The notes under the pieces: model-generated
Database searches by the model: none
What the model saw: only the letters and a program-made list of their open reading frames with translations
What the model was told of the DNA's origin: nothing
Shown: positions 3-21,666 of the stretch, in pieces
How positions within the stretch are numbered: position 1 is the stretch's first letter
Layout: each line of letters begins with the position of its first letter
Made by a program: the position numbers and the translations under genes
Source of the DNA: Candidatus Zixiibacteriota bacterium
Lineage (GTDB): Bacteria > Zixibacteria > MSB-5A5 > CAIYYT01
Direction of reading: 5' to 3'
Assembly (NCBI GenBank): GCA_040235515.1
Contig: JBECKX010000089.1
Location: forward strand, 1 to 25,848
Length of the DNA: 25,848 nt

Positions 3-86
3 CCGGTTCCATCGATTGGTCCGACGCTTGATCGCTGTTATGTGGCTTTGCGCAAGATCCTGCGGAAGGAGTTAAATGATTTTTAG
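3..86 (+). CDS. 3' end of an ECF-type RNA polymerase sigma factor (region 4), truncated by window edge
   Basis: Frame starting at nt 3 reads PVPSIGPTLDRCYVALRKILRKELNDF-stop(TAG 84-86). This resembles the 'P.GSIGPT..RC...LR' region-4 end of ECF sigmas I recall from CHAT-gene neighbourhoods. Not in the ORF track. Confidence 0.75.
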   Translation, partial: PVPSIGPTLDRCYVALRKILRKELNDF

Positions 87-121
87 GTATTTTTTTCAGA
101 TCCCAGCCCTCTCAATAAGTA
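85..121 (+). promoter_or_regulatory. Candidate ECF-sigma promoter, copy 1 (AGGTAT-N18-CTCT-N4-AAGTA)
   Basis: AGGTAT 85-90, CTCT 109-112, AAGTA 117-121. Same elements and same 18-nt spacer recur at 5039-5074. Lies between the sigma stop and the RBS (GGGAG ~125-129) of the next gene. Confidence 0.55.
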
Positions 122-137
122 AACGGGAGTTATCACT

Positions 138-776
138 ATGACCGAAAAACGCCGGGATGGTGGGAGCCAAGTCGAGGAGTTAATCCGACTGGCTCAGGAT
201 CAACTTGACCCGTCGAGCAAGGAAGCACTGCAAAAGAGGCTAGCGCAGGATAAAGACCTTCAGGCACTTTATGAAATTGTCCTGAGCATGTATCAAAGGC
301 GAAAAGAGGAGCTCGACGAGATTCTGCGGGAGGCGCAGGATGCAGTGGTTTCGAAGGAGACTGCTGAGTCGGCCATGCGCCAGGGCTTGCGGATATTCGA
401 CGACTTGCGGTTGCGCAGAAAGGATCCGACGAGGCTGCGCGGGATAGCCGTGACTGATTCAGCGGATACGCCGACTCCTGCGGGTGTGCGGAAGTCTGCG
501 GTTGATACGCGTCGATTGAAATACCGCCTGCCGGAGGGCGAGGTGCATCTGGAGCTATTGCCGGTATCGTTCGAAAGCTACGATATGACCGGAATCGTGA
601 CCCACAAGACTCATTCCGGACCTTTCAATATTGCGTTGCGCACCGGCAAGCGAGTCCGCAAGACCACTACCGATGAAGTCAATCTCTTTCAGCTGGCCCG
701 AGTTGCCAGCGGTCGACACGAGATCGAACTTTTCTTTGGTGCCGAGTTGATCGGAACGATCACTCTGGAGATATAG
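138..776 (+). CDS. Putative cytoplasmic anti-sigma factor / CHAT-associated protein
   Basis: Directly follows the sigma gene. N-terminal helical segment resembles an anti-sigma domain without Zn ligands (ELIRLAQDQLDPSSKEALQKRL). Central DS...PAGVR...RRL.Y segment, then a beta-rich C-terminal domain. No TM helix. Confidence 0.6.
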   Translation: MTEKRRDGGSQVEELIRLAQDQLDPSSKEALQKRLAQDKDLQALYEIVLSMYQRRKEELDEILREAQDAVVSKETAESAMRQGLRIFDDLRLRRKDPTRLRGIAVTDSADTPTPAGVRKSAVDTRRLKYRLPEGEVHLELLPVSFESYDMTGIVTHKTHSGPFNIALRTGKRVRKTTTDEVNLFQLARVASGRHEIELFFGAELIGTITLEI

Positions 777-786
777 AAGCAAGAAA

Positions 787-3555
787 ATGATCGATTTTCA
801 GCAGATAAAGAGCATCACAGGTTCCGTGAAGAGCCAGGCTGATCTCGCAGCCTACCTGGCGAAGGAGTATGCGGGGGATGTGGAAGCGTTCATGGATGCT
901 ATCGATGAGGGTCTCAACGAGCTGCTGAAAACTGACAGAGCCAGGGCGGAGGAATTCGTAGCGGTCGCACAACCGCTGGCGGATTTGCTCGCGCCTGAGT
1001 GGCAACCGCGTTTTGTTTCGTTGCGCGCTCGGCTTGCGCTCAACGCCGGCAGAGCAGCGGAGGCACGCGATCTCTATTTGCGGGCGCTTGGGCTTTTCAA
1101 TAAGCACAGGAACTTTGCCTCGGCAGCGCGCCTGCGCAAGGGCCTGGTGGAAGCGTACAAGTTGCTCGGTGAGACTGATGCTGCGATCACCGAGGGCAAG
1201 AAGGCACTCGCCTACTTCCGGCGTAAGGGCTGGCAGGTTGATGAGGCGAAGATGTTGACCAACCTCGGTAACATCTACCACCACAAGGATCAGAATCGGC
1301 AGGCGTTGCGATACTATGAGAAGGCGCGGGAAGTGTTCGCCCGGGAGGGCGGACTGCCGGTCGCGATCGTCGAATTCAACCTCGCGAACATCTATACGAA
1401 CTTAAATGATCTCCAGCGGGCAAAGAAACTCTACGCCAGTTCACTCGCGTTCTATGAGCAGAGCGGATTCGAGATCTATGCTGCGCAGGCGCGATATTCG
1501 CTGGCTTACCTGGCATTCCTGGAGAGCCACTATGCGCTGGCGCTTGAAGGATTCGAGAATGTCTACGATACGTTTGTCAGGCTGAAAGATCGCGTTTCAG
1601 CGGCGACGACGCTGCTCGATTTAGTCGAGCTGGAGGTTCACCTGCATCTGTTCGGTTCGGCAGTGCATCTGGGCCTGCATGTGATCGAGGAACTGCGAGC
1701 GATGAATCTCTCCTACGAGGAGGGCAAAGCCAACTACTTCGTCGCCGCCGCCATGATTGAGCTTCAGGAGAAACGCGAGGCGAGAAAGTACCTCAAGCGC
1801 GCTAGATCGATATTTGAAGCATCCGGGAACAATCTCTGGTTGGGGATGGTGTTGCTTGCCAGCGCCCGGCTCTCGCTTCAGGAGAAGCGCATCCCGGCGG
1901 CATTGGATCTCACGCGGGAAGCGGAGGCCTTTTTTGCCAGAAGCGGTGACAAGCGCAGGATGAATGATGCACGCCTGCTGCGGCTCGAAACGATAGCGCG
2001 CAGTGAAGAAGCGAGCCGGCTGTTGAGCGGGGCGGTAAAACAGCTCCGAGCGGCGGGTCTGGTCAAGTATCAACAATATCAACTCGCTACCACGCTGGGT
2101 GATTACTACATGCGGCGCAAGAAGCATGGAGATGCAGTTCGGGAATACCGTGCCGCGCTGAAGAATGCCGAAGAGATGTTGTACGGGCTCAATCAGGATG
2201 AGATTCGGGTCTTGTTTGCATCGGATGTTACGGAGTCCTACAATCGTCTGGCGCAGGCGTACCTGGCGGAGAAGAAGGACCGCAGCGCGTTGATCGAGGT
2301 GTTGCGCGGTATGGCGGTGTTGAACCTGCAGAGTACTCGAATCAGCGCCAATGCACCGCGCGGGAGCTTGCACAAGCAGATTGATTCGTTGCGAAGCCAG
2401 ATCGCGATGTTGCACCGGCTGAAGGAGGGAGGAGGCAGCCGCGAGGTGGCCGCTTCTCGTTACCGTGACCTGGAACAGAAGCTGTGGCGCCTGCAGAGAA
2501 GCGCACGCGGCCACATCACGCGTGGCGATGACCCGACCAACGTAACCGTATCCGACATCGAAGAGATTCTCGACAAGCTTGGTGACAGAACGCTGGTGCA
2601 TTATCACCGGGTTGGCGATCAGATTGGCGCTTTCGTGGCGGATTCTTCCGGCGTCAGGTACTCACGATTACAGATTTCATTCTCGGAATTTCAGACGGCG
2701 TTGCGTAAGACCTACTTCCTGCTTGAGCAGGGTATCACGCGCAGGAGTGGATCGGCTGCCGCGACGAAGGCGCTGACTCATTACCGCCGCCTCTTGTATG
2801 ATCAGATTGTCGCACCGCTTTTTGCTGAGATATCAACGGCACCGGAGACGATCCTGGCTGTTGATCGCGAGTTCCTGCAGGTGCCGTTTGCGACTCTTCT
2901 CGATGAGGCCGGGGTCGTTCTGCAGGACAAGCTGGAATTCAGCGTGATCGTGAATCCGCTCGACATCAAACGCAGCGGTGCCAGCTGGAACCCACGTGGG
3001 ACCAGTGCCATCATCGGAGTCGACTCAGAGAGCCTGCCACTGGTTCGGAATGAGTGTCAGGCGATCAGATCGAACTATAGGGATGCTGAGTACTTCATGG
3101 GTGAGGCGGCGACTACCACCTCGGTTGGAGAGGCGCTCAGGAAATGCAGCGGCTTTGTGCACATTGCAGCGCATGCCTCGCGGGCATCGGAGAATCCGCT
3201 CTTTTCGAGGATCCTGCTAGCGGACGGCCCGCTGTTCCCATTTGAGGTTAACGGCACGATCAGGGCTGGATTGGTGACGCTTTCAGGTTGCCAAACTGCA
3301 GCTCCGGGTCTATATTACGGTAATTCCTTTAGCCTGGCGAAGGCATTCTACCAGGCCGGCGGCCGCGCAGTTTTAGCCTCACAATGGTCGGTTGCCGATG
3401 ATGTAACAATGGAATTCATGACAGAGTTTTACAAAGTTCTGGGCGCTACGAAATCAATCAGGAAAGCATTCCTGCGAGCAGTATCGAAAATTCGAATGCT
3501 AACAGACAATCCGGCTCACTGGGGAGCATTTGTCCTGTTAGGTGGAGTAACATAA
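787..3555 (+). CDS. TPR-repeat + CHAT (caspase HetF-associated) cysteine protease
   Basis: Long TPR array (e.g. LTNLGNIYHHKDQNRQALRYYEKA). C-terminal CHAT motifs LQVPFATL, FVHIAAH(796)A, VTLSGC(835)QT, VLASQWSVAD, NPAHWGAFVLLG. His/Cys dyad intact. Confidence 0.93.
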   Translation: MIDFQQIKSITGSVKSQADLAAYLAKEYAGDVEAFMDAIDEGLNELLKTDRARAEEFVAVAQPLADLLAPEWQPRFVSLRARLALNAGRAAEARDLYLRALGLFNKHRNFASAARLRKGLVEAYKLLGETDAAITEGKKALAYFRRKGWQVDEAKMLTNLGNIYHHKDQNRQALRYYEKAREVFAREGGLPVAIVEFNLANIYTNLNDLQRAKKLYASSLAFYEQSGFEIYAAQARYSLAYLAFLESHYALALEGFENVYDTFVRLKDRVSAATTLLDLVELEVHLHLFGSAVHLGLHVIEELRAMNLSYEEGKANYFVAAAMIELQEKREARKYLKRARSIFEASGNNLWLGMVLLASARLSLQEKRIPAALDLTREAEAFFARSGDKRRMNDARLLRLETIARSEEASRLLSGAVKQLRAAGLVKYQQYQLATTLGDYYMRRKKHGDAVREYRAALKNAEEMLYGLNQDEIRVLFASDVTESYNRLAQAYLAEKKDRSALIEVLRGMAVLNLQSTRISANAPRGSLHKQIDSLRSQIAMLHRLKEGGGSREVAASRYRDLEQKLWRLQRSARGHITRGDDPTNVTVSDIEEILDKLGDRTLVHYHRVGDQIGAFVADSSGVRYSRLQISFSEFQTALRKTYFLLEQGITRRSGSAAATKALTHYRRLLYDQIVAPLFAEISTAPETILAVDREFLQVPFATLLDEAGVVLQDKLEFSVIVNPLDIKRSGASWNPRGTSAIIGVDSESLPLVRNECQAIRSNYRDAEYFMGEAATTTSVGEALRKCSGFVHIAAHASRASENPLFSRILLADGPLFPFEVNGTIRAGLVTLSGCQTAAPGLYYGNSFSLAKAFYQAGGRAVLASQWSVADDVTMEFMTEFYKVLGATKSIRKAFLRAVSKIRMLTDNPAHWGAFVLLGGVT

Positions 3556-3577
3556 CGCGAAGAAGGATAAGGTTGAG

Positions 3578-4822
3578 ATGAGTTCCCGACGCTTCCCCCA
3601 AATTACAGCACTTGCACTTTTGCTCCTCGTGGCAGTGCTCGCTTCTGTAAGTTTGTCTGTGAATAGCGCGACCCTCGCAGCCTCACAGGCCACTTCAGAG
3701 CACATGATCATCATGACTCAAGGACGGATGAAGGCCAGTACCCTGATGACTCCGGCCGGTGGTAAAGTAGTGAGCAGCATACCCGGGCAGAATATTTATG
3801 AGGTTGAATTGCCCAAGGGTGCCAACATCACGGACTTGGCCCTGCAGTATCAGAGACATCCCGAGATTGTTTTTGCCCACAAGGATCAAAAAACGGAACT
3901 CCCGGAATTGTACCAGGTGAGTCAAGGTTTCCCGGATCAGAAAGATACAGTGTTTATTTCCGGCGTGAGCCCGCAATCTTATTACGGGCAGGCTGGAGTA
4001 TATGCGACAGGTGTGGACTCGGCGCAATCGTATGCGACCGGATCAGGCGTCAAGGTTGCTGTCATCGACAATGGGCTGGATTATTCTCAGTGCCTGATCG
4101 CGACGGCGGATATTTTACCCGGCTATGATTTCGTCGACAACGACACGATACCGGCGGAAGAAGAGGGTGAGATGCAGAGCCATGGAACCTTCGTGACGAG
4201 CCTGATCCTGCTTACCGCGCCAGATTGCTCGATTCTCCCGATCCGTGTTTTTGACGGAGATGGCATCGGCACGCAGTATGATATCGCGCAGGGGATTTAC
4301 TATGCAATCGGGCAGCAGGTGGATGTGATCAACCTGAGCTTCGGATGCGAAACCGCTACACCGGTTTTGATCGGTGCGGTTCAGGCGGCTCTGAATAGCG
4401 GGATCGTCGTCGTGGCTGCTTCCGGAAACAATGGCGAAGACCTTGATCTTTATCCCGCCCGCGAAGATTACGTAATCGCGGTTGGGGCGATTGATACGAC
4501 CGAGGTCAGGGCAGGCTTCTCCAACTACGGTAACTACCTGACCGTCTGTGCTCCCGGAGTGGATGTACACGGTGCATTCTTCCATCCTCAGTATGACTGG
4601 GGCATCTGGAGTGGAACCTCATTCTCCACCCCGATCGTGACCGGAACCGCCGCGCTGGTTAGAGAACTTCAGAGCGGCTATGATTCGGATGATGTGCGGA
4701 CGCTGTTGATTCAGTCTGCACGCACCGAACTGACTTGGGGAACGCTGAGTACTCCGGATCTCGAGTATGGATATGGGCTACTCAATGCCCTCGATGCAGT
4801 CCTGGAGGCGAGCGGCAACTAG
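3578..4822 (+). CDS. Secreted S8 family (subtilisin-like) serine peptidase
   Basis: Signal peptide and propeptide-like segment. Triad VAVID(164)NG, SH(202)GTFV, SGTS(348)FSTP; oxyanion AASGN. Confidence 0.95.
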   Translation: MSSRRFPQITALALLLLVAVLASVSLSVNSATLAASQATSEHMIIMTQGRMKASTLMTPAGGKVVSSIPGQNIYEVELPKGANITDLALQYQRHPEIVFAHKDQKTELPELYQVSQGFPDQKDTVFISGVSPQSYYGQAGVYATGVDSAQSYATGSGVKVAVIDNGLDYSQCLIATADILPGYDFVDNDTIPAEEEGEMQSHGTFVTSLILLTAPDCSILPIRVFDGDGIGTQYDIAQGIYYAIGQQVDVINLSFGCETATPVLIGAVQAALNSGIVVVAASGNNGEDLDLYPAREDYVIAVGAIDTTEVRAGFSNYGNYLTVCAPGVDVHGAFFHPQYDWGIWSGTSFSTPIVTGTAALVRELQSGYDSDDVRTLLIQSARTELTWGTLSTPDLEYGYGLLNALDAVLEASGN

Positions 4823-4886
4823 CGACAGATTCGCCCCCGGATATCGCTTTGAGACGATGATTTGAGGCGACGATTCGATCTATGAC

Positions 4887-4919
4887 AGGCCATGAGTTTT
4901 CAACTCATGGCCTTTTTTT
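4887..4919 (+). terminator. Rho-independent terminator of the CHAT-S8 operon
   Basis: Perfect 12-bp stem AGGCCATGAGTT-TTC-AACTCATGGCCT followed by a T run. Confidence 0.9.
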
Positions 4920-5038
4920 GAACGGCGCATCGTGAGCTTCAGGATGTGCGAGCGATCGCGTGGGAGCTTGCGAGATCGGATTTCGATTGAGAGGGGGATG
5001 AGTTGAGAGTTGTTTTCAAGAAAAAAGATCGAAGCTGA

Positions 5039-5074
5039 AGGTATCAAAAGTAGTTCTTATTACTCTTGAAAGTA
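5039..5074 (+). promoter_or_regulatory. Candidate ECF-sigma promoter, copy 2 (AGGTAT-N18-CTCT-N3-AAGTA)
   Basis: AGGTAT 5039-5044, CTCT 5063-5066, AAGTA 5070-5074; matches the copy at 85-121. Confidence 0.5.
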
Positions 5075-5545
5075 GAGCTGGGAAGTACAGGGAGTTGTTC
5101 CCGGCTTGAGTGTGGTTGAACAATCCCTTGGTTTTAGAAGATCCGAGGAGCCTCAAGCCATTATCATGCCTTTATCGGCTTGAGGCTGTCCCTGTCCCGG
5201 TGCAGTGGAGCAGAGCACTGCACCGGGAAAAATCTGACCTGAACTCCTTTGAACAAGTGATCGGCTCACACCATTTATTCTCGGAGGACGGGGGCTTCCC
5301 CCACGAAAACTTAATGGTGCATCCGATCACTTGTTGTTTAGAGACGGGCGGTCCAGCCGGGTTCGGTTGCCGTCGACCAGTTTTCCTGCTTTTCGGGTAG
5401 TCTCCCGATCAGATCCAGTCATACCATTCTGAGTGCCTAATTGTGTGTCGGCACGATTGGTGAATAGTATATTAAAGGGGAAAGCAAATCCTGATCGGGA
5501 GCGTGAGAGACCTAGCAGCGGCTCTTGCGCTACGTAACAATTACG
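5075..5545 (+). ncRNA. Large structured non-coding RNA or long structured 5' leader of tamA (family not recognised)
   Basis: Consecutive stems: 5087-93/5189-95, 5095-100/5118-23, 5126-31/5143-48, 5149-59/5177-87 (11 bp), 5195-207/5216-28 (13 bp), 5252-64/5323-35 (13 bp, with inner stems), 5354-59/5364-69, 5402-12/5491-501 (11 bp, with inner stems), 5501-09/5522-30. Strand is inferred from the promoter; G-U evidence is mixed. Confidence 0.6.
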
Positions 5546-5548
5546 CAT

Positions 5549-7426
5549 ATGACATTACAGCCAACCGCGCCGCATTCCCAGCTAAAGAAGCGGATTCACC
5601 ATATCCTGATACTTCCCCCCCTGTTGGTCATACTTCTCGGAGCATGGTCTTCGCTGCAGGCACAGTCGGGTTACAGTGTCGCGGGAATCGAGATAGATGG
5701 AAATCAGGCATTCGATGATGGTGAATTGCGGGAGATCATGGTGCTCAAGACGGCCTCGTGGTTCAAACGAGTCTTTCTCGGGCGGGACCGCTCAGAGTTC
5801 GATGAGACAAGCTTAAGAAACGACCTGCAGCGTATCAAGCGCTATTACCAGCGTCGTGGCTTTCTCAACGCGAACGTCATGTTGAGTGAACTGCAGAGCA
5901 ATGATAAGAACGAGACGGTCACGATCAAGATCAGGGTGGAGGAGAACGCTCCGATACTGAACGGGGCAATAAGCTACAGTTTCGCGGAGAATGCCGCTGA
6001 TTCCTCGGCGTTGATGGGTTTGGTGCCGGCTAACGCTATCCGCGGACAGATTCCACGCGGGGAGCCGTTTCGCGATGCTGACGTCACGAATGTCCGAACC
6101 GGATTGATGGATGCGTTTGCAAATGCGGGGTATCCATACGTTGACGTCAAAGCCAATCTTGATATCGACACCGCTGCGAACGTCGTTGATATCAATTTCG
6201 CCGTAGACCCCGGACCACTCTCGTACTTCGGTGAGGTCTCAATCAGCGGTCGCGATCGAGTTGGCGAGAAGCTTATCATTAACCAGATGCGGTTGAAGAC
6301 GGGAGGGCGCTATTCCCAGAAACTGCTGCGCGATTCGCAGCGGCAGATATTCTCCCTGCAGGTGTTTGAGGTCGTTACCGTGCGGGCGAAGCTGTCGGAA
6401 GCACGCGATAGCATCATTCCCGTACAGGTGAACCTCAGTGAAGCCGCGCAGTGGTCATCCAAGATAGGTGTCGGCTATGGGCGTGAGGATGAATTCAGAG
6501 CGTTCACCGAGATGCAGTTGTTATCTTTCATGGGAGGGGCACGGCGCCTTACCCTTTATGCCAAACACTCGGGTCTGGAACCGTACCACGTCAATCTTGA
6601 GCTGGTCCAGCCGGCATTTCTCGGACCTCGCAACGAGCTATCGATCAATCCGTTTGTGCGCAAGCAGGAGGAACCGGGATACACGGTCCGACGTTACGGG
6701 TCACATTTTTCATTTTCGCGGAGATTCAATCTCTTTCTCAGCGGAACGGCGACCTACACTTTCGAGCAGGTGCGACTCGACACGAACTCGGTTGCGGAGC
6801 AAGCCACCACCGATCTCTCCAACCTTGATCTCTACAACAAGTCGGCGATCCAGCTGAGTTTCACGTGGGATGATTCATATCCGGCGTTCTCGCCGGAGCG
6901 TGGCTGGTTCGGGATTATCTCGGTCAAGTATAGCGGGCTCGATCTCGGCAGCCGGTTCAACTACGCCAAAACTTTGTTCGACCTGCGCCATTACGTCGAT
7001 CTCGGTGGCGTCGTGCTCGCGTTGCGGGGAAAGATTGGTGGGATCAAGTCATTTGACAGCGAACCATTCGTGCCGGTCGAAGACCGCTATTTCTCCGGCG
7101 GTAGTACCTCAAATCGCGGCTGGGCGCGTGGCGGGTTGGGACCGACTGATGACGAGGGCAAGCCGATTGGCGGTAACAGCTTGTTTGAGGGTAATGTGGA
7201 GTTGCGCTATCCGATCATCGGGGTGTTGTCGGGCGTCATATTCTACGACTTCGGCAACGTCTGGATTGAATCGTACGATTATAGGCCGCGAGATTTGCGC
7301 TATGCGACCGGATTGGGTTTGCGTCTCCGCACACCCATTGGCCCGGTGAGGTTCGATGCCGGGCGGCCGGTCTTCGATGATGAGACAACGATCCAGCTTC
7401 ACCTGAGTGTCGGTCAGGCATTCTAA
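5549..7426 (+). CDS. tamA: Omp85-family outer membrane protein, TamA/BamA-like (POTRA domains + beta-barrel)
   Basis: Signal-like hydrophobic N-terminus, about three POTRA-like repeats, barrel motifs RYFSGGSTSNRGW, FYDFGNVW, GLRLRTPIGPVRFD, terminal GQAF. Adjacent to tamB. ATG 5549 preferred to TTG 5525. Confidence 0.88.
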   Translation: MTLQPTAPHSQLKKRIHHILILPPLLVILLGAWSSLQAQSGYSVAGIEIDGNQAFDDGELREIMVLKTASWFKRVFLGRDRSEFDETSLRNDLQRIKRYYQRRGFLNANVMLSELQSNDKNETVTIKIRVEENAPILNGAISYSFAENAADSSALMGLVPANAIRGQIPRGEPFRDADVTNVRTGLMDAFANAGYPYVDVKANLDIDTAANVVDINFAVDPGPLSYFGEVSISGRDRVGEKLIINQMRLKTGGRYSQKLLRDSQRQIFSLQVFEVVTVRAKLSEARDSIIPVQVNLSEAAQWSSKIGVGYGREDEFRAFTEMQLLSFMGGARRLTLYAKHSGLEPYHVNLELVQPAFLGPRNELSINPFVRKQEEPGYTVRRYGSHFSFSRRFNLFLSGTATYTFEQVRLDTNSVAEQATTDLSNLDLYNKSAIQLSFTWDDSYPAFSPERGWFGIISVKYSGLDLGSRFNYAKTLFDLRHYVDLGGVVLALRGKIGGIKSFDSEPFVPVEDRYFSGGSTSNRGWARGGLGPTDDEGKPIGGNSLFEGNVELRYPIIGVLSGVIFYDFGNVWIESYDYRPRDLRYATGLGLRLRTPIGPVRFDAGRPVFDDETTIQLHLSVGQAF

Positions 7427-11405: not shown

Positions 11406-12800
11406 CTACTGCAGGGTAAAGGCCTCGGCCAGATTGAAGTTGCCCCCGGTCACCTCAAAACCGGTAACGTTGGTGGAGGAGACCAGTTTGTTGTTCTCGT
11501 CGAAGAAGAGTATCTCCAGATCGTAAGTACCCGGCTCCACCTCGAAGTCCCCCACGTAAATCTTTCCGGGCAGAAGGTAGCTGCAGCGCAGGTCGGCGTT
11601 CTCAGTGATATCCGAGGTCACATCAACGGCCGCCTTGAGCAGCCAGCCGCCGATGCCGTCATCCTTGACTTCCTCTTTCAGCTCATGCGTGGCCAGACCT
11701 TTGGCGAGCGCACGCGCCAGGGTCTTGACAAAGATCAACGTCTTGCGTGCCTCGAACACATCGCGCGAGACCGCGCCAATATCCTCGATCAGTTGCAGGT
11801 GCCCGAGTCGCCGACCATTACTCCACACGCCGATGCTGGCGACTTCGCTTGGAGTCTCCTTGAGCTCCGGGATGGCGAATTTGAAGTAGTAGTCGGCATT
11901 CACATCGGCCGGGAACTGCCAGTAGACCTGGTCATCCTCACCGGTGCCGTCGATGAGAATCTGCACGATGTCGAGTTGCTTGTCGGTGCGCAGCCGCAGC
12001 TTGAAGTCACGTTTGACCGGAGCACTCCCCGCCAGAGCCACCACGCTGATGATCGCTTTGTCGGATTGGTATTGTACCTCAGGTGGTTCGAAACCGTAGA
12101 TCTGAGGTTGGGTGAGGAACGCTTCCCGGAGTAGCCGTTCATCGATTGCAGCGTCGTCGTAGTTGCCGGTCGCCGCGTACATGTGCATGCTGAGGTAGCG
12201 GGCGAAGGCGGAGTTGCTGAAGCGAATCTGTTTATCCTCCAGCGGGATTTTCACTTTTGCGGAGTCGGTATTGAGCTGGTTGCGGAGGAAGCGAGCCTCT
12301 TCGAAATGCTTCTGCTCGAGCTGCTGGAGCTTGAGGTTCGCGCGCCTGATCTCCACGAACGCGGCCTCGAAGTCGTCCAGTTCGAGGTAGTTGAGTGCCT
12401 TGAAGAGATTCGTGTAGAGGACTTCGTAATCCTCCCCGCGATACTCGATAGCGTTGTCGTTGAGCAGGAGGGAGAGGGCGCCCTGGGAGATGCTCTTAGC
12501 GTAGAGGTCATCGTTGGTCTGTTCCGCCGAGCTGAGGCGGACAATGCTGCTGTCGTACTCGCGCGCGTAGTGGTATGCCAGTCCGGCGTCGAGGTAGTAG
12601 AGAAAGCGGTCTTTGCCCGCGTACTTGTTCTCAGTGCGTGCCTTTTCGATCGCGGCAACTGCAGCGGCGTAGTTGCCTTCATAGAGATCTGCGCGGATCG
12701 GCTCGTAGAACTGGGTGCGAGTCATGACCGACGCGCACCCAACGAGCAGGCATAGTGCGGCGATGACCGCCGCGGAACTCTTGAGTCTGAACAGATTCAC
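11406..12800 (-). CDS. COG3014-like TPR lipoprotein
   Basis: GTG start, lipobox LLVGC, TPR-like N-terminus, LLNDNAIEYRGEDYE and ADLRC..LP motifs. Adjacent to an LpoB-like gene, a known pairing. Confidence 0.8.
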   Translation of the reverse strand: MNLFRLKSSAAVIAALCLLVGCASVMTRTQFYEPIRADLYEGNYAAAVAAIEKARTENKYAGKDRFLYYLDAGLAYHYAREYDSSIVRLSSAEQTNDDLYAKSISQGALSLLLNDNAIEYRGEDYEVLYTNLFKALNYLELDDFEAAFVEIRRANLKLQQLEQKHFEEARFLRNQLNTDSAKVKIPLEDKQIRFSNSAFARYLSMHMYAATGNYDDAAIDERLLREAFLTQPQIYGFEPPEVQYQSDKAIISVVALAGSAPVKRDFKLRLRTDKQLDIVQILIDGTGEDDQVYWQFPADVNADYYFKFAIPELKETPSEVASIGVWSNGRRLGHLQLIEDIGAVSRDVFEARKTLIFVKTLARALAKGLATHELKEEVKDDGIGGWLLKAAVDVTSDITENADLRCSYLLPGKIYVGDFEVEPGTYDLEILFFDENNKLVSSTNVTGFEVTGGNFNLAEAFTLQ

Positions 12801-12863
12801 CGTGGTTACCGGAGGCTGTGTGGCATCGACTGACTCGACACGACAGAGCCAGCAGCTACTAAT

Positions 12864-13472
12864 CTACCACTTCGTGCTGCCGCGAGAGATACCCTTCTTG
12901 ATCTTCTTGTTGCCGATCCAGACCTTCTCGTTGCTTTCGATATTGATCAACTCGAGATCGGTGGTGTAGAAGATGACCTGCTTGTCACCCTCCTGATCGA
13001 CGATCGAAGAGATCGAGCCGAGCAGGATGAAATCCGCGCCCAGTTCCTCGCGCAGCATCTTCTTGGTCTCTTCGGAGGCCCAGTCCGCCTGGTCCTGGCG
13101 TTCGGAACGAACATCCATTCTTTGTTCCGGGGCGGCGACAAAGCGAATCTGACCCGAGTTAAGCAATTCGCGCTCGAAGTCTTTGGTGAAGGTCTCGGTG
13201 TCGATATGCTCAGAGCTGTTGTTGCGGATACGACCAACGGTCACGACCGGCCGGCGACCCTGTTCCTCGCGGAAAATCCCGAGCCAGGGGCGCGACATTG
13301 CATCATCGATCATCTCCTCGGCGACCAGCCGCGAATCAGTATCGTTCCAATTTCCACTCAGATCGGTCTGAGTTCCGGGTTCAAGCCGGGTAACTTCCTT
13401 GCTCGCGCTGCAGCCAACGACAAAGGCTGCGATCAACAACAGTGCTGCTATCTGCTTCATTTTTCGTTTCAT
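12864..13472 (-). CDS. lpoB: LpoB-like (penicillin-binding protein activator family) lipoprotein
   Basis: Lipobox VVGC; motifs DLSGNWNDTD, IRNNSSEHIDT, GADFILLGSI, KVWIGNKKIKK. Confidence 0.82.
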   Translation of the reverse strand: MKRKMKQIAALLLIAAFVVGCSASKEVTRLEPGTQTDLSGNWNDTDSRLVAEEMIDDAMSRPWLGIFREEQGRRPVVTVGRIRNNSSEHIDTETFTKDFERELLNSGQIRFVAAPEQRMDVRSERQDQADWASEETKKMLREELGADFILLGSISSIVDQEGDKQVIFYTTDLELINIESNEKVWIGNKKIKKGISRGSTKW

Positions 13473-13865: not shown

Positions 13866-13928
13866 GATTATACAATATTGTACAATCCGATTCCAAGACC
13901 TACACAACCCATGATTCTGAGGCCGTCC

Positions 13929-15782
13929 ATGAAGCTCTTGATATCGCTGTTGATCCTCGTAACCCTGACATTATCCATCTTTGCTCCAGCCATCGCAATG
14001 GCTGAAGAGGAAGAGGAGTTCCTCCCGATCGGTTTGACGGAGGAAGAAAAGACACGACTTGATGAAATCGGTATCGCGTTCCAGCGCAGTGCACCGCCCA
14101 GCGGGGTGATGCGGACCTGCGCGGAGTGGGAGCATTGCGAGCGGGTGTTGATCCGTTGGCCTCTCGGGATTCCGGTCAGCCTGATTGCGGAAATGTCAGA
14201 GGATGTTCTGGTGACGACGCTGGTCGGCAGCGCTTCGCAACAAACTTCGGCCACCAATACCTACATCGCCGGCGGTGTGAATATGGCGAACACCGAGTTT
14301 ATCATCGCTGCGACCAATTCGATCTGGACGCGCGACTACGGTCCCTGGACGATGTTTGATGACAACGGAAATGTTGGCTTCATCGACCACATCTATAATC
14401 GTCCGCGACCGCTCGACGATGTTATCCCGCAAACTCTCGGGTCGATCTGGGGAATACCGGTGTATGGGTTGCCGGTGATTCACACGGGTGGCAACCACAT
14501 GGCGGATGGTGAAGCGATGTCGATGTCGACCCGGCTGGTTTATGACGAGAACCCGTCGCTCACGCCTGCTCAGGTTGACTCCTACATGCAGCAGTATCTC
14601 GGGAATCAGTACACCGTACTTGAGTATATCGAGACGGGCGGCATTCACCACATCGACTGCTGGGCCAAGCTCCTCAACCCGACCACGGTTCTGGTGAAGC
14701 AGGTTTCCACCGGCGCCTACAATTACCAGTGGCTGGAGGATCGTGCCGAACTGTTGTCGCAGACGATGTCACCGTGGGGTAAGCCATACACGGTAGTGCG
14801 GGTCTATTGCCCTAGCGGTGAGGCCTACACGAACTCACTTATTCTGAACAAGAAGGTGTTTGTCCCGACGTTTAATTCCGTCTGGGACGGTGATGCGATC
14901 CATGTTTATCAGGCAGCGATGCCGGGCTATGAAGTGATCGGCTTCAACGGTTCGTGGCTTTCCGACGATGCAATCCATTGTCGCGCGATGGGAATTATGG
15001 ATCGCGATATGCTCTATGTCGATCATATCCCGCTGCAGACGACGGCGGACACGCTGAACGACTACGAGGTGAAGGCATTCATTTATTCGCACGCGCATGC
15101 CACGCTGTTGATGGATTCATTGCGGGTATACTATAGTGTTGATGGCGGACCTTTCTCACATGTTCAGATGGCAGCCACCGCACACCCGGACTCTTTTGTG
15201 GGTTACATTCCGGCCCAGCCGGGGGGAAGTGATATCCGGTACTTCGTCAAAGGTATGGACCTGGCGCTGCATTCCGCGACGCATCCATACATCGGCGAGC
15301 CGTGGGCGCATGAATTTAACGTCAATATGGCGCCGCAGATCACATCCCAGTCAAGCTACCTCGTGCAGACAGGTTCACTCTTCGAGTTCGCGCCAGAGTT
15401 TACGGACAACGATGATACCGAGCACACTATCGGCTACTTAGACCTTCCGGGCTGGTTGTCCGCTGCGGGGGATTCGGTCAGCGGTACTCTCCCGGCAAGT
15501 CCCGTCGATGACAGCTTCACTGTTACGGTTGCTGATCAGTTCAGCACCGATTCGCTGCTTGTGGAAGTTCGCAGTTACCTTTGTGGTGACGCTGACGGCG
15601 GCGGCGCAATATCGATCGGTGACGCGGTGTACGTTATCAACTTCATTTTCGGAGGTGGTCCGGCGCCTGATCCGCTGGTCGCCGCTGATGCCGACTGCAG
15701 TGGCGCGGTTTCGATCGGCGATGCCGTCTACATCATCAACTTCATCTTTGGTGGTGGCCCGGCGCCGTGTGATTGCGAATAG
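13929..15782 (+). CDS. Secreted agmatine/peptidyl-arginine deiminase family protein with Ig-like domains and C-terminal dockerin-like domain
   Basis: Signal peptide MKLLISLLILV...AIAMA; motifs WTRDYGP, GGN, HHIDCW, DAIHCR (catalytic Cys). Start 13929 chosen for the GAGG upstream; the ORF track starts at TTG 13878. Confidence 0.9.
   Translation: MKLLISLLILVTLTLSIFAPAIAMAEEEEEFLPIGLTEEEKTRLDEIGIAFQRSAPPSGVMRTCAEWEHCERVLIRWPLGIPVSLIAEMSEDVLVTTLVGSASQQTSATNTYIAGGVNMANTEFIIAATNSIWTRDYGPWTMFDDNGNVGFIDHIYNRPRPLDDVIPQTLGSIWGIPVYGLPVIHTGGNHMADGEAMSMSTRLVYDENPSLTPAQVDSYMQQYLGNQYTVLEYIETGGIHHIDCWAKLLNPTTVLVKQVSTGAYNYQWLEDRAELLSQTMSPWGKPYTVVRVYCPSGEAYTNSLILNKKVFVPTFNSVWDGDAIHVYQAAMPGYEVIGFNGSWLSDDAIHCRAMGIMDRDMLYVDHIPLQTTADTLNDYEVKAFIYSHAHATLLMDSLRVYYSVDGGPFSHVQMAATAHPDSFVGYIPAQPGGSDIRYFVKGMDLALHSATHPYIGEPWAHEFNVNMAPQITSQSSYLVQTGSLFEFAPEFTDNDDTEHTIGYLDLPGWLSAAGDSVSGTLPASPVDDSFTVTVADQFSTDSLLVEVRSYLCGDADGGGAISIGDAVYVINFIFGGGPAPDPLVAADADCSGAVSIGDAVYIINFIFGGGPAPCDCE
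15582..15779 (+). repeat. Duplicated dockerin-type Ca-binding repeat within the deiminase C-terminus
   Basis: CGDADGGGAISIGDAVYVINFIFGGGPAP and AADADCSGAVSIGDAVYIINFIFGGGPAPC. Confidence 0.88.
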
Positions 15783-15822: not shown

Positions 15823-16521
15823 TTATTCGTTCGTGACGAGCCGCAGACCCTTGCCGTGGATACTCATGATTTCCACGCTCTGGTCAGCTTTCAGATACTT
15901 GCGCAGCTTGGAGACGAAAACATCCATGCTGCGCCCACTGAAATAGCTGTCCTCCCCCCAGATCTGTTCGAGCGCGTGCCCTCGTTCCAGAGTTTGGTTC
16001 TTGTGAAGGCAGAGGAGCCGCAACAGATCAGCCTCTTTGGGTGTGAGTCGTTGTTCCTCTTTGCCGAGAGTCAGTAACTGGCGGGTGTAGTCGAAGTGGA
16101 AGTTACCCACGGTGAATTCCGTCGGTGGTTCTTCCCTGGCCTGCTGCCGGCTTCTGCGCAGAACGGCGTTGATGCGAAGCAGCAGCTCTTCCATGCTGAA
16201 CGGCTTGGTGAGGTAGTCGTCACAACCAAGCTTGAATCCTTCAATCTTGTCTTCCTTCAATGACTTTGCCGTAAGAAAGATCAGTGGGGTTTCCTGATCG
16301 GCCTGACGCACTTCCCTGGCGAAGGTGAAGCCATCTTTACGCGGCATCATAACGTCAACGAGACAGAGTGTGAACTGCTCCCGCTTGAAGGCATCGAGTC
16401 CCTCGACTCCGTTGCGGCAGCGAAGGACATCGAATCCCTGCATCTGCAGGTGTTCCTCCAGGATCGAGCCGAGGTTTTCGTCATCTTCAAGCAGTAATAC
16501 GCGCTGCGATTTCATCATCAT
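15823..16521 (-). CDS. OmpR/PhoB-family response regulator
   Basis: LLLEDD, phospho-acceptor LVDVMMP, FLTAK, DDYLTKPF, winged helix MDVFVSKLRKYL...HGKG. Start overlaps the kinase stop (ATGA). Confidence 0.95.
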   Translation of the reverse strand: MMMKSQRVLLLEDDENLGSILEEHLQMQGFDVLRCRNGVEGLDAFKREQFTLCLVDVMMPRKDGFTFAREVRQADQETPLIFLTAKSLKEDKIEGFKLGCDDYLTKPFSMEELLLRINAVLRRSRQQAREEPPTEFTVGNFHFDYTRQLLTLGKEEQRLTPKEADLLRLLCLHKNQTLERGHALEQIWGEDSYFSGRSMDVFVSKLRKYLKADQSVEIMSIHGKGLRLVTNE

Positions 16522-18239
16522 CGTTCATCCTCGATCAGCGGTAACTCGATTGTGACCGTTGTGCCTCGACCCAACTCGCTATCGAGGGCAACGGATCCGC
16601 CGTGTGCTTCCACAATCAGTTTTACGTATGTCAACCCCAGACCGAACCCTTTTACGTTGTGAAGATTTCCGGAGGAGACGCGGTAGTACTTATCGAACAC
16701 GGAATGAACATCCTCCTTCGAGAGACCGATGCCCTTGTCGGAGATTGAGAGCCGAAACTTTCTGCTGCGCTGATCTGAGGAGAGCGATGTGGTAACGGTG
16801 ATTTCGGGCGCATCCTCCGAATACTTGAGCGCGTTGTCGAGCACGTTATTTATCACATTGGAGATGTGGGTTTCATCGGCTGCAACCCGGTCTCGCTGTG
16901 CGCCGAGGGCTACCTCCACCGAGCCGTGACGGGGTTCGACCTGGAGTCTGAAACTTGCCACGAGTTTGCTGATGATTTCATGGAGGTGCAGAGGCTTCAG
17001 GTTGAGTTCCGACTTACCCTCTTCCAGCACGGCCATTTGCAGAATCTTTTCGACCTGGCTGCGCATCCTCATGCTTTCATCCTTGATCATACTACCGTAG
17101 CGATCCACGCGTGCTTTGTCACCCGCCGTGTCGCCGCGCAGGAGTGCCTCACAGGCAAGCAACACCGTCGAAATCGGCGTTTTGAACTCGTGTGTCATGT
17201 TATTGATGAAGTCTACCAATCTTCCCGCGAAGCGCTGCTGAGTCACGATCACGCGAATCGTATAGGCAAAGCAGAAGGCTATCAGCGATACGAAGAGGAT
17301 CGTGAGCGCCAGCAATGGGCCGAGCTGTTTCCAGATATACACCTGCCGATCGGGGAAGTAGACGCGCAGATCATTCCGGGCGGCGAAAAGATCGCTGGGG
17401 AAGAGGCGCGTGGTAAATTTGCTGTCTCGCAGTTGCGAGACAAACGCCGCATTGCTGACCAATTGCAACGAGTCCTCACCTTCAGTGGTCACGGCATACT
17501 CGGCGTTGATGTCGATGCCGGAGTGGGAAAAACTCTCATCCAGCAGAGAATCGAGATTGATCCGGGAGAGCCGTTGTTCGATCGGTTCGAATTCGCCGAC
17601 CACCCAGTTCGTGACGAGCCGCTGGGCCAGTAGCCCTTTGGGACTGCTCGAAATCCAGCTCTGGAGATGCGGGAGGTTGTCATCGGCGGAGAACGCATAG
17701 ACCGTCGACATGGAGTCGCTCTGAAAGGTGAAGTACGGCATCAGCCCCATAGTCGGCGTATCCTTGATATCGATTTCATGCGTCCCGGCGGTTCGCACCG
17801 TGTCAACCAGAACCTGCTCCTTACCCGATACCGGGTCGAGCATTCTGATCGTCACATGCTGAGGGTGGGAGAGAGAGAAGCAGAGCTTTTGATCATCGAT
17901 GAAGATGGGGGAGTGAGTCGTATCGAGGTGATCAAGCACCAAAGCAACAGCCCGCAGACTATCTTTTTGCGGCAGGTTACCACGTTTGACGATGCTCTCA
18001 TGTTCGAAGCGCCGCTCCCCTTCGGCGATAACATCAAGGGTATAGGTTGCGGCTTCCGTCGCCTCCAGCTTTCTGGTCACCGAGCTGAGGGCAGCCCAGA
18101 CGTTGCGCTGGAAGGCCTGGTCGCGCTGCTCGTAGGCATTCTTGAGCAGATAACCCTGCAGGACCGACAGTCCGGTGAGCGCCGTGACAATCAGCACAGC
18201 AACGATAATTATGGCGCGTCTGGAACGGTTCATCGTCAT
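16518..18239 (-). CDS. Membrane sensor histidine kinase
   Basis: Two TM helices flanking a large periplasmic region; H-box NMTHEFKTP, N-box DNALKYS, DKGIG, GFGLGL. Start uncertain (18233, 18239 or 18242). Confidence 0.95.
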   Translation of the reverse strand: MTMNRSRRAIIIVAVLIVTALTGLSVLQGYLLKNAYEQRDQAFQRNVWAALSSVTRKLEATEAATYTLDVIAEGERRFEHESIVKRGNLPQKDSLRAVALVLDHLDTTHSPIFIDDQKLCFSLSHPQHVTIRMLDPVSGKEQVLVDTVRTAGTHEIDIKDTPTMGLMPYFTFQSDSMSTVYAFSADDNLPHLQSWISSSPKGLLAQRLVTNWVVGEFEPIEQRLSRINLDSLLDESFSHSGIDINAEYAVTTEGEDSLQLVSNAAFVSQLRDSKFTTRLFPSDLFAARNDLRVYFPDRQVYIWKQLGPLLALTILFVSLIAFCFAYTIRVIVTQQRFAGRLVDFINNMTHEFKTPISTVLLACEALLRGDTAGDKARVDRYGSMIKDESMRMRSQVEKILQMAVLEEGKSELNLKPLHLHEIISKLVASFRLQVEPRHGSVEVALGAQRDRVAADETHISNVINNVLDNALKYSEDAPEITVTTSLSSDQRSRKFRLSISDKGIGLSKEDVHSVFDKYYRVSSGNLHNVKGFGLGLTYVKLIVEAHGGSVALDSELGRGTTVTIELPLIEDER

Positions 18240-18270
18240 CAATATACGTCACTTCGGTAGTTCAAAACCA

Positions 18271-18310
18271 CTACTTAACAGTCATTAACAAACCATAACA
18301 GCTATTAACT
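18271..18310. promoter_or_regulatory. Four tandem 10-bp direct repeats, likely OmpR-family binding boxes
   Basis: CTACTTAACA GTCATTAACA AACCATAACA GCTATTAACT, exact 10-bp period, in the divergent intergenic region. Confidence 0.75.
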
Positions 18311-18440
18311 GGGGGGAAAGCAACCCGCCATCTATAGTTACCGTACGAGAACCCACAAGTGCCACGAGTGGGCGAGTGACCCGGTTGTGCATAGAAATGT
18401 GGCTTGAACACAAATCCTGAATCTTGCAGAGGTGCCGAAA

Positions 18441-19259
18441 ATGAAAACGCTGGTAACATCAATCCTGCTGGCCATCGGGCTGGCGGTGGTCGTCTCCCTG
18501 ATTACCGATTCGCTTCTTGCGGCGGAATGGAAAACCCAAACCAAGACACTCAATGCCGGCGAGGTTTTCATCCTGCCGGAACTTGGATCTGTCATCCTGT
18601 CCAAAGACGACGCACTGGTAGTGGACCTGTCGGGACATCCGGAGAAGCTGCCGAAAGTATATCGTGATGTTGATCTGCGCGAGGGGGACAAGATCATCAT
18701 GCTCAACGGCTCGCGGGTGAAAACGATCAAGGAGCTTGAGAATGGTTACGCCGTCATCACCCCGAACGAGACGGTAAAAATCGGGATCAGCCGGGACGGT
18801 CAAATGATGATGGTCTCATTCCCGAAGGGTGATCCTGATAAGCTGCCGGTTCGCAGAATGATCGTTGCCAATCAGGGCGAGGGGGGCGAAGTCTCGGTGC
18901 TGGGTGGCGGTTCGGACAAGATGCTGGAGCTCGACGCCTCCGATGCAGCGGTGATTGCGGACGCGGGGCTGATCGTGGCGTTGATCGAAGAGAAACTGAC
19001 CATCAGCTCAATCCTTCCAAATGCCAACGAGATCAAGGGTCTTGAAGACGTGCAGGTCGGGGATGTCGTCGACAAGGTCAACGGTGTGCATTTCCTCACC
19101 ACACAGGATCTGGCGGACTTCTGGAATGAAATCAAGGTTGGCGAAGAAGTGAGCCTTACTCTGCTGCGTGACGGCGCGAGCCACACGGCCAAGTTCCAGA
19201 AGCAGGAGGTTCAGAACGAGATGCCGATGATCATTCGCTCGAAAGCGAAGAACGACTGA
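18441..19259 (+). CDS. Exported protein with two PDZ-like domains
   Basis: Signal peptide; LREGDKIIMLNG and VQVGDVVDKVNG...VSLTLLRDG PDZ signatures; no protease domain seen. GAGGT RBS before ATG 18441. Confidence 0.8.
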   Translation: MKTLVTSILLAIGLAVVVSLITDSLLAAEWKTQTKTLNAGEVFILPELGSVILSKDDALVVDLSGHPEKLPKVYRDVDLREGDKIIMLNGSRVKTIKELENGYAVITPNETVKIGISRDGQMMMVSFPKGDPDKLPVRRMIVANQGEGGEVSVLGGGSDKMLELDASDAAVIADAGLIVALIEEKLTISSILPNANEIKGLEDVQVGDVVDKVNGVHFLTTQDLADFWNEIKVGEEVSLTLLRDGASHTAKFQKQEVQNEMPMIIRSKAKND

Positions 19260-19300
19260 TTCACTGTAGCTTTGTCACCCGATTCAGGAGCTGATGATCA

Positions 19301-20836: not shown

Positions 20837-20892
20837 ACCGGGAGATGATGCAGTGAAAATTCGTTTGATCAATGAAGACAGGAGCCACGGAG

Positions 20893-21663
20893 ATGAATGA
20901 GAGCAATGCTGCGGGTTCGCGTCCGATCCTGGAAGCGGATGCACTTACCAAACGGTATGAAGATGGATTGCTGGCCCTCGATGCGGTGTCGTTCACGGTG
21001 TCGGAGGCACAGGTCTTCGCCATGCTGGGCGGCAACGGCGCCGGAAAGACGACGACGATCAATCTATTCCTCAACCTGATTGAGCCAACTTCCGGCGAAG
21101 CACGCATCAATGGCATCGTGACCCACAAAGAGCCATTGGAGGCGAAAAAGCATGTCGCCTTTGTTTCTGAGAACGTGATGCTTTACGGCAACTTCACGGC
21201 AATCCAGAACCTCGACTTCTTTGCCCGCCTCGGCGGGAAGACCGGGTATACTCGGGATGATTATCACGCCGTCCTGAATCGGGTGGGGCTTGATGAGAAG
21301 TTTCACAACAAGCCGTTGAGGGGATTCTCGAAGGGGATGCGGCAGAAGTGTGGTATCGCGATTGCGATATTGAAGGACTCCCCTGCAATCCTGCTCGATG
21401 AGCCAACATCGGGTCTCGATCCGAAGGCAGGCCACGAGTTCATTCATCTACTGGCGTCATTGCGTGAAGAGGGGAAGGCTATTCTGATGTCGACGCACGA
21501 CATATTCCGCGCGCGTGAACTGGCGGACGTGATCGGCATCATGAATGGCGGCAAGCTGTTGATGCAGAAGACCGCAGCCGAGTTGGAGGGTTACGACCTG
21601 GAGAGCCTCTACATGGATTACATGGCTGGGGAGTATGCGGCCACATCACGAGTCGGGGGCTAG
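20893..21663 (+). CDS. ABC-2 type transporter ATP-binding protein
   Basis: Walker A GGNGAGKTT, signature FSKGMRQ, Walker B ILLDEP, H-loop STH. Alternative start 20872. Confidence 0.95.
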   Translation: MNESNAAGSRPILEADALTKRYEDGLLALDAVSFTVSEAQVFAMLGGNGAGKTTTINLFLNLIEPTSGEARINGIVTHKEPLEAKKHVAFVSENVMLYGNFTAIQNLDFFARLGGKTGYTRDDYHAVLNRVGLDEKFHNKPLRGFSKGMRQKCGIAIAILKDSPAILLDEPTSGLDPKAGHEFIHLLASLREEGKAILMSTHDIFRARELADVIGIMNGGKLLMQKTAAELEGYDLESLYMDYMAGEYAATSRVGG

Positions 21664-21666
21664 TCT

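Follow-up and report, generated by a model that had tools for sequence, protein, structure and literature searches.

A predicted sigma factor, anti-sigma and TPR-CHAT protease module with a candidate small RNA in a Zixiibacteriota bacterium

Genes and features at the locus

We analysed a stretch of 25,848 nucleotides (nt) from a Candidatus Zixiibacteriota bacterium (GCA_040235515.1, JBECKX010000089.1), called the window below, whose base 1 is the start of contig C213 in an assembly of 218 contigs with a completeness of 100. Its left end carries, all on the plus strand, the 3' end of a gene for a sigma factor of the extracytoplasmic function (ECF) type and the genes for a soluble protein (open reading frame 138, ORF138), for a protease with tetratricopeptide repeats (TPRs) and a CHAT domain (TPR-CHAT) and for an S8 subtilase, followed by a terminator-like hairpin and a structured non-coding element. 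We read these parts as one regulatory module, in which ORF138 would hold the sigma factor until the TPR-CHAT protein cuts it. G000 stands for the source genome and G001 for its close congener; papers are cited for what their accessible parts state.

Only the end of the sigma gene lies in the window: the frame at 3-86 (plus strand) runs for 27 amino acids to the stop, ends in ELNDF, contains the SIGPT helix of region 4 and aligns with the end of region 4 in the sigma factors of 13/13 relatives. Contig C98 of the same assembly ends with the 5' part of a sigma gene and has an exact overlap of 16 nt with window base 1, and the two genes upstream on it are syntenic with the sigma locus of G001 (87% and 68% identity). 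Because of this overlap and the upstream synteny, we assigned C98 as the rest of the sigma gene. The part on C98 reaches 58.7 bits on TIGR02937 (cut-off 42.9) and matches the Pfam models of sigma regions 2 and 4, in both cases below the cut-off. The domain content is sigma2 and sigma4 only, as the context of ECF54 requires, a group of sigma factors that reportedly goes back to Huang et al. 2015. In three DNA contig sets we were not able to find loose ends or an extension of the contig. An initial annotation, made from the sequence of the window, had taken the upstream frame for a sigma factor and proposed to extend the contig leftwards; the region-4 alignment and the TIGR02937 match bear out the former, and the latter led to the remainder of the ECF sigma gene on C98.

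Directly after the sigma stop comes a predicted promoter, P1 (87-113, plus strand; -35 GTATTTT, -10 CTCTC), for the operon of ORF138 (138-776, 212 amino acids), TPR-CHAT and S8. TPR-CHAT (787-3555, plus strand) matches PF12770 (E 3e-37) in addition to TPRs, has both dyad residues, H796 and C835, and is predicted to be a cytoplasmic clan CD protease. The subtilase (3578-4822, plus strand) matches PF00082 (E 1.6e-43), has the D164/H202/S348 motifs and begins with a hydrophobic, signal-peptide-like N-terminus and a prodomain. A terminator-like hairpin with a 12-bp stem and a T run (4887-4920, plus strand) would close the operon, and the non-coding stretch between the subtilase gene and tamA/tamB is 700 bases long. 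The soluble 212-residue protein, the intact CHAT dyad, the secreted subtilase with its intact triad and the terminator had all been recognised before, and all of them hold up; for ORF138, no hydrophobic segment is seen (maximum KD19 0.73).

The four genes tend to occur together. ORF138 homologues are found in 10/61 genomes, the source included, and in 2/20 genomes of the source's family, which is a patchy distribution. In 13/13 loci found with ORF138 it stands between sigma and CHAT, and S8 follows in 12 of them, the contig ending first in the remaining one. A CHAT-domain scan of species genomes, of which we took the best 80 of 480 matches, gave a set of 78 loci, mostly from Zixiibacteriota. 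Sigma, ORF138, CHAT and S8 are present together in 45/49 of the loci with enough flank, in line with the co-occurrence that had been expected for related genomes. The dyad is present in 65/65 full-length CHATs and the triad motifs in 60/60 subtilases of the locus set. The subtilase and TPR-CHAT lie within three genes of sigma, again as in the ECF54 context. Apparent fusions of anti-sigma with CHAT and of sigma with anti-sigma (L087, L064) proved to be artefacts of N gaps.

ORF138 and R118

ORF138 combines a helical, zinc-free N-terminal domain of anti-sigma type, a linker of the pattern DS..P.GVR and a beta-sandwich similar to transthyretin and carboxypeptidase regulatory domains; it has no Cys. 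In an AlphaFold model of the congener's protein (mean pLDDT 85), three N-terminal helices and one strand are followed by a coil (97-112) and the sandwich, which is Ig-like, as would suit the carboxypeptidase-regulatory-like +1 protein of the ECF54 context. A profile built from 52 sequences of the family matches the anti-sigma domains of DdvA-N (E 3.5e-5), RslA (1.7e-4) and ChrR (1.2e-3), and over the family profiles such matches span E 3.5e-5 to 1.3e-3; the 52-sequence profile also matches the transthyretin-like NOMO2. PF13620 is found in 21/52 family members, with no match for the window protein alone, and zf-HC2 in 5/52. A zinc motif of the HxxxCxxC type is kept in 19/139 homologues. Taken at the level of sequence profiles, homology of the ORF138 N-domain to the class I anti-sigma domains of RseA, ChrR and RslA is supported.

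The initial annotation had also suggested co-folding sigma with ORF138. This was run on the pair of the congener, which passes with a score of 0.65 versus 0.00 for the best control; the mark that we used is reached by 116/157 solved pairs and by 2/215 mismatched pairs. The contacts agree between runs to at least 94%, the partner pLDDT is at least 82, and the modelled interface involves mainly residues 8-100. Judging from this model, it is highly probable that sigma is bound by ORF138, which makes ORF138 an anti-sigma candidate that likely keeps sigma inactive. What stands of the earlier idea of ORF138 as the sigma inhibitor is this candidacy, with the DdvA-N, RslA and ChrR profile matches and the co-fold in its favour. 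Several observations have to be set against it. The window's ORF138 has lost every zinc ligand of the HxxxCxxC motif. A Foldseek search with the N-domain puts RslA first, weakly (E 0.63), and searches with the fold of the whole protein return generic Ig-like sandwiches only. Furthermore, the co-folded pair is the congener's and not the window's, and similar ECF/anti-sigma complexes have already been solved, so that the pass may reflect likeness to them.

The linker contains an arginine, R118 (codon 489-491, plus strand), that is invariant in 139/139 homologues (138 search matches of 150-230 amino acids, out of 149, and the window protein) and is kept in 54/55 of the locus set. It corresponds to R106 of the congener and, in the model, lies in coil just beyond the predicted sigma interface. 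On the side of the protease, E756 and W867 are kept in 65/65 CHATs and D871 in 63/65. Arg-specific clan CD enzymes build their S1 pocket from acidic residues on alpha1 and L5 together with an aromatic residue of L5 (PMC4357240), and in a topological reading E756, W867 and D871 would match these determinants, which makes them candidate S1-pocket residues. From the three residues and the invariant R118 we infer that CHAT is a protease with Arg in substrate position P1 (not to be confused with promoter P1), for which R118 is the likely residue. That CHAT cleaves ORF138 at R118 seems to us a rather probable reading of this conservation. The nearest solved relatives of CHAT include Csx29 (E 1.7e-5 to 3e-3) and the TPR-CHAT of DdvA (8rot, E 2.9e-5). 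These closest solved TPR-CHATs do not prove Arg specificity, and Csx29 is without an equivalent of D871; the invariance of R118 fits docking or inhibition too. Both points weaken the case for cleavage.

Potentially, R118 could belong to a bait or docking loop, by which ORF138 restrains or tethers CHAT, whereas the real substrate would be sigma or another protein. There are examples of such arrangements: the gingipain prodomain inhibits with a loop that places an Arg in S1 (PMC4357240), PCi not only inhibits PCaspase but is also cut by it, PCaspase cutting sigma too (bioRxiv 2023.06.23.546230), and proteolytic control without an anti-sigma has been proposed for the ECF54 sigmas (PMC8999054). 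On the other hand, ORF138 has an anti-sigma-type domain and co-folds with sigma, so that a route by sigma release is available, and Csx29/Csx30 provides a precedent for the cutting of an inhibitor (PMC10028731). We consider a bait or docking role of R118 unlikely.

Promoter sites and the region after the subtilase

A motif of the type GTAT...CTC is present at or near the sigma stop codon in 13 relatives. We trained a matrix on these 13 junction sites, with the window excluded and one site taken from the close congener; among 7,161,814 genome positions, window positions 87 and 5041 rank 1 and 3. The second site is the predicted promoter P2 (5041-5067, plus strand; -35 GTATCAA, -10 ACTCTT), which is kept in the congener, has the same 22-nt spacing from -35 to -10 as P1 and has a near-identical counterpart after S8 in another family (L038). 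In a held-out test, for which 12 duplicate loci were dropped and 400 nt after S8 were scanned, the matrix matched at the junction in 27/40 loci and after S8 in 28/44 loci on the plus strand versus 3/44 on the minus strand (shuffles 6.9%). A looser regular-expression survey gave 36/52 and 34/55, with 1/55 on the minus strand; it was written after seeing the data, and the matrix test is cleaner. The GTATCAA subtype recurs at four junctions and four post-S8 sites. The recurrence of one promoter-like motif before the operon and in the non-coding region had been noted before, and with these numbers we hold it very probable that the motif is the promoter of this sigma.

The case for P2 and for a larger regulon is weakened by three results: a refined matrix, in which the GTATTTT subtype is dominant, lowers the site at 5041 to rank 19, the copy in the congener scores low (5.2-7.1), and the genome-wide motif counts are at or below those of shuffles, with no wider regulon visible in the source genome. 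Upstream of the sigma gene on C98 no promoter site was found (best matrix score 7.7), and autoregulation of the sigma gene seems to be absent. Since there is no upstream sigma site and the genome-wide counts are not above shuffles, the regulon visible in the source genome consists of P1 and P2. We also saw a GTATCAA...CACTCTT site upstream of a glutathione-peroxidase-like gene with a hydrophobic N-terminus (L115:621-650, on contig C36 of G000). It is not above the genome background, and the gene is a possible third member of the regulon.

G000 contains related loci as well. A paralogous second module on contigs C59 (L114) and C31 (L028:1-4650) is likewise broken between contigs, which overlap by 17 nt. 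In this module the zinc ligands of the anti-sigma are retained, and the sites at the junction and after S8 have GGAATC in place of GGTAT. The difference between the sites of the two modules suggests insulated promoter specificity. A third sigma on contig C151 (L116:1-1726 and 3964-7104), with a 300-residue anti-sigma-like protein next to it and a convergent TPR-CHAT nearby, is of a different subtype. Two plasmid sigma matches are without module genes.

The fold z of the region 4823-5545 is -5.95 on the plus strand and -8.77 on the minus strand. The signal is confined to 5075-5340 (z -6.7, versus -0.45 and -1.24 in the flanks; -5.3 in the congener), and here the identity to the congener is 0.68; the S8 gene has 0.64 and the flanks have 0.45-0.51. 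The consensus fold, with hairpins at 5144-5194, 5196-5227 and 5253-5334, has 53 pairs, of which 11 show compensatory and 6 one-sided G-U changes (plus strand) and 0 are broken, a tally reached by 1/500 shuffles. Two unpaired, pyrimidine-rich motifs (5164-5173 and 5241-5249) are invariant between the window and the congener. The structured non-coding region with a promoter-like motif that the initial annotation had seen is thus located at 5075-5340 (plus strand). Probably it is a stand-alone RNA of about 265 nt, with deduced ends, that would be made from P2.

Here, too, there are arguments to the contrary. The minus strand of the element folds at least as well as the plus strand. The element is known from two distinct sequences only, and since these two also served to derive the structure, the covariation count is partly circular and its support overstated. 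There is no strong terminator at its 3' end, we found no conserved mRNA target for it, and Hfq was not found in 4/4 genomes. Searches for homologues by BLAST in 101 genomes and by a covariance model in 121 genomes and 79 loci returned the congener only. Of 14 matches in a metagenome pattern scan, one is the congener's sequence, and the other 13 are weak and without a module gene nearby. No Rfam 15 family reaches its gathering score in the window. Sequences exactly complementary to the two unpaired motifs occur at the start regions of 0 and 3 of 3092 crude gene calls, which is not an enrichment, and none were found on the leaders of the module. That the RNA represses mRNAs through its unpaired CCUU motifs is a tentative proposal, with the odds close to even and slightly against it. 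As for known RNAs, identification of the element as tmRNA is unsupported, the genome's tmRNA mapping elsewhere, and so is identification as 6S RNA (no RF00013 match).

The folded region could also be a long 5' leader of tamA, with tamAB induced by the sigma. The gene that would be concerned, a tamA/BamA-family gene recognised by its domain match (5525-7426), lies on the same strand, no strong terminator stands between 5340 and 5525, tamA follows in the congener too, and leaders of 100-250 nt precede secreted genes in relatives. However, tamA/tamB come after the module in only 1/78 loci, which is the congener's, and the 190 nt past the core lack both conservation (0.49) and structure (z -1.2, +1.0). 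Moreover, a separate sigma70-like -10 hexamer before tamA (5468-5473, plus strand; TATATT/TATACT) is conserved in the congener alignment and suggests that tamAB has its own promoter. We regard the leader as quite improbable, and tamAB, proposed earlier as an output of the sigma, as a neighbour outside the module.

Another possibility is that the RNA acts as a 6S-like decoy of the sigma, its unpaired ACUCC/ACUCU mimicking the non-template strand of the -10 element and titrating the holoenzyme as feedback. Letters resembling the -10 element do occur in the unpaired, conserved linker (5241-5249) and in the seed of family A (below), the commonest RNA family found in relatives, but the same letters are equally anti-Shine-Dalgarno-like, and the fold consists of three hairpins and not of the 6S rod. 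There is no RF00013 match in the window; the model finds no 6S RNA in the source genome or five kin either (6/6 genomes of the family: G000, G001, G002, G003, G006 and G007), so that a divergent 6S may remain. A decoy function is very unlikely in our view. The same holds for a short peptide gene, or a decayed remnant of a small-gene cassette, in place of a functional RNA: a frame ending in MPLS(A/I) is open in both genomes, but no start codon or ribosome site common to both was found, the codon changes are mostly non-synonymous and explained by stem covariation, the 96-residue frame at 5110-5400 is broken by TGA in the congener, no minus-strand promoter faces the region (best score 6.0), and the core is more conserved than its flanks.

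In the relatives, a gene lies within 330 nt of the last post-S8 motif in 23/33 loci and none in 10/33; by a crude rule, 22 of the 23 genes start like signal peptides. In addition, we find candidate RNA elements in this position. Family A, an element of about 80 nt that consists of a hairpin, a conserved unpaired seed and a terminator, is present in 7 loci, of which six were the training set and the model added one, always in the post-S8 slot, with no other strong match among the 80 sources; double changes affect 7/17 pairs in a model-fitted alignment. Run over 151 genomes, the family-A model gave as strong matches its two training sequences only, and nine weaker ones were inspected and lack seed and promoter. 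Family B is found in 3 loci (double changes in 5/41 pairs). Families C, D and F have 2 loci each: C is a BLAST cluster, D is about 350 nt long, and F was recognised only by eye. None of these five families resembles the window element, and an Rfam scan of 10 relative loci found tRNA only. In a hand tally, in which kin are not independent, 17/55 evaluable loci have a candidate RNA element in the slot, the congener included. Relatives appear, from these comparisons, to fill the post-subtilase slot with at least five unrelated candidate RNAs and/or secreted-protein genes.

Some complementarities involve the family-A seed. In the two paralogous modules of genome G035 (L081:4576-4605 and L083:4486-4515) the seed could pair perfectly, over 10 and 11 nt, with the upstream region of the module's own sigma and not with that of the other; about 1% of control windows match in this way, and the pattern is seen in 2/7 family-A loci, not in the other five. 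At L056:10371-10400 about 11 nt in the leader of the downstream secreted gene complement the seed of the family-A RNA just upstream; the close locus L058 does not keep this complementarity. A Shine-Dalgarno-like RGGRGGTRR occurs in 11/33 leaders (L055, L056, L057, L059, L061, L067, L073, L074, L078, L093 and L095); it lies at some distance upstream of the gene for the secreted protein, and no start codon follows it consistently. These leaders recall STAB-SD, an mRNA-stabilising element.

One secreted-protein family (L038:8877-10304 and homologues) is repeatedly a neighbour of the module, with 23 proteins in 22 loci, and has no PADLOC match. Further to the right in the window, an LpoB-family lipoprotein gene and a gene for a 464-residue lipoprotein-like protein without Pfam match lie on the minus strand, convergent with tamAB (11406-13472). 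They are followed by a secreted protein of the peptidyl-arginine-deiminase family with a dockerin-like tail (13878-15782) and, according to the list of open reading frames only, by a response regulator/sensor kinase pair, a PDZ-like protein and an ABC exporter set (15823-24545).

Proposed switch and relation to known systems

For the whole chain, in which ORF138 holds sigma, CHAT cuts at R118, the freed sigma fires P1 and P2 and the RNA is made, we estimate a probability of roughly 0.55. The sigma gene would have a separate promoter, and ORF138 would hold its product. A ligand on the TPRs would activate CHAT, and the cut after R118 would split the sigma-binding half from the beta-sandwich; perhaps further degradation of the ORF138 piece is needed, as with Csx30 and RseA (PMC10028731). 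The freed sigma would fire P1, giving more inhibitor, protease and exported subtilase, as well as P2, giving the RNA of about 265 nt and, in relatives, secreted proteins too. Because the sigma gene is apparently not autoregulated, P1 would resupply inhibitor and protease and in this way reset the switch. Across the relatives the output would be an export programme, with secreted proteins as the coding arm and short RNAs as the non-coding arm. As to the trigger we can only guess: the TPRs may bind a peptide or a protein, which the exported subtilase might itself produce. MicA and RybB are sigma-E-dependent small RNAs and form the non-coding arm of that response. By analogy with the non-coding arm of sigma-E responses, the RNA would most likely repress mRNAs by base pairing (bioRxiv 2022.07.29.501972). 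In its widest form, the proposal is that a CRISPR-free, Arg-specific protease gates an anti-sigma, and that an interchangeable RNA slot has recruited five or six unrelated families as the repressive arm of a secretion programme, some of them feeding back on the sigma leader; this we offer as speculation, more doubtful than not.

The closest description in the literature is that of ECF54, with a carboxypeptidase-regulatory-like +1 protein, a subtilase, a TPR-CHAT, no anti-sigma, 100% Actinobacteria and a GTATCAG/CTCC promoter (PMC7826278). It confirms the earlier remark that ECF-CHAT-S8 neighbourhoods exist in other bacteria, and it takes away the novelty that had been read into the gene set and its promoter. 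An actinobacterial locus of the published layout, from Nonomuraea, matches our profiles (sigma E 4.5e-45, +1 protein E 2.3e-10, and CHAT also); besides CHAT, S8 and sigma, it includes a +1 homologue in which DS...R is present, and a GTATCAG site. As judged from sequence, with this single actinobacterial locus as the profile match, the module is related to ECF54 and would work like it. The differences are as follows. The motif here, GTAT(TTT or CAA) and (A/T)CTC(T/C), is related but not identical to the published one. The nearest loci come from Zixiibacteriota or from uncultured metagenome-assembled genomes labelled Ignavibacteria and not from Actinobacteria, and in the top Atlas cluster Zixiibacteriota are the most frequent phylum. 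Whereas ECF54 is listed without an anti-sigma, the +1 protein here has an anti-sigma-type domain and a co-fold with sigma. Finally, sigma, anti-sigma, CHAT and S8 are on one strand with an internal promoter, and a downstream RNA slot is not mentioned in the accessible part of the ECF54 description.

Type III-E CRISPR had been put forward as a model for the locus. In that system, the TPR-CHAT Csx29 cuts Csx30, a soluble inhibitor of CASP-sigma, an ECF-like sigma that has binding sites within the locus encoding it (PMC10028731). The functional analogy, a TPR-CHAT acting on a soluble sigma inhibitor, stands; as for ORF138, no likeness to Csx30 was detected, and no Csx30 chain is among the PDB matches of the ORF138 profiles. 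Unlike in type III-E, no Cas7-11, Cas1 or RAMP was found here, and the output would be exported proteins and candidate RNAs. The module is not a type III-E system.

Myxococcus DdvA/DdvS likewise has an ECF sigma, a zinc-type anti-sigma domain (our best match, E 3.5e-5) and a TPR-CHAT, but DdvA is a transmembrane anti-sigma with the TPR-CHAT in the same chain, and it controls an island with CRISPR and a cyclic-oligonucleotide-based anti-phage signalling system (CBASS) (PMC11506125). Here the anti-sigma candidate and the TPR-CHAT are separate soluble proteins, and the dyad is intact. The SAVED-CHAT/PCaspase/PC-sigma/PCi system also places a cascade of clan CD proteases beside a sigma; it is activated by cyclic oligoadenylate through SAVED, whereas we saw no SAVED or cyclase here (bioRxiv 2023.06.23.546230). 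FoxI resembles the proposed output in that an ECF promoter drives a small RNA in a host without Hfq, but its targets are shown (bioRxiv 2022.07.29.501972). Here no conserved target was found, the candidate RNA adjoins the module, and in relatives this place is taken by unrelated candidate RNAs. The CATRA and TRADD-N systems gave no match to this module, as far as they are described in the accessible parts of the sources (PMC8195603, PMC7159879).

A role of the module as an anti-phage system, like its CRISPR- and CBASS-linked cousins, is improbable: CHAT/sigma pairs do serve defence in type III-E, in type III-B and in Myxococcus DdvA/DdvS, as far as the accessible sources go, and the distribution is patchy, but the outputs are secreted proteins (signal-peptide-like genes after the post-S8 motif), neither Cas1 nor a RAMP gene turned up in the source genome (CRISPR arrays were not searched genome-wide), in agreement with the earlier description as CRISPR-free, and a PADLOC survey of neighbours (148 representatives of 223 clusters, first 330 amino acids) gave nine scattered generic-domain matches, with neither a Cas core nor a cyclase model among them.

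As a gene set, the module is already catalogued as an ECF54-type neighbourhood. What the evidence supports as new here are the anti-sigma assignment, the candidate cut site, the two promoter copies and the conserved RNA-like element in a variable slot. Our literature search, which covered few subscription papers and supplements in part, found no test of the module, of the anti-sigma or arginine assignment or of the RNA slot, and no paper joining small RNAs and sigma factors in this phylum. ECF54-type sigmas are listed without an anti-sigma, and the accessible part of the group description names no studied member (PMC7826278). The locus offers a complete predicted circuit with named residues and sites: an inhibitor domain, R118, C835, two promoters and a candidate RNA. 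If the proposed chain is true, it would show a role of stand-alone TPR-CHAT proteases outside CRISPR and CBASS, and such sigma responses would gain, in this phylum, a non-coding arm that comprises several RNA families not described so far.

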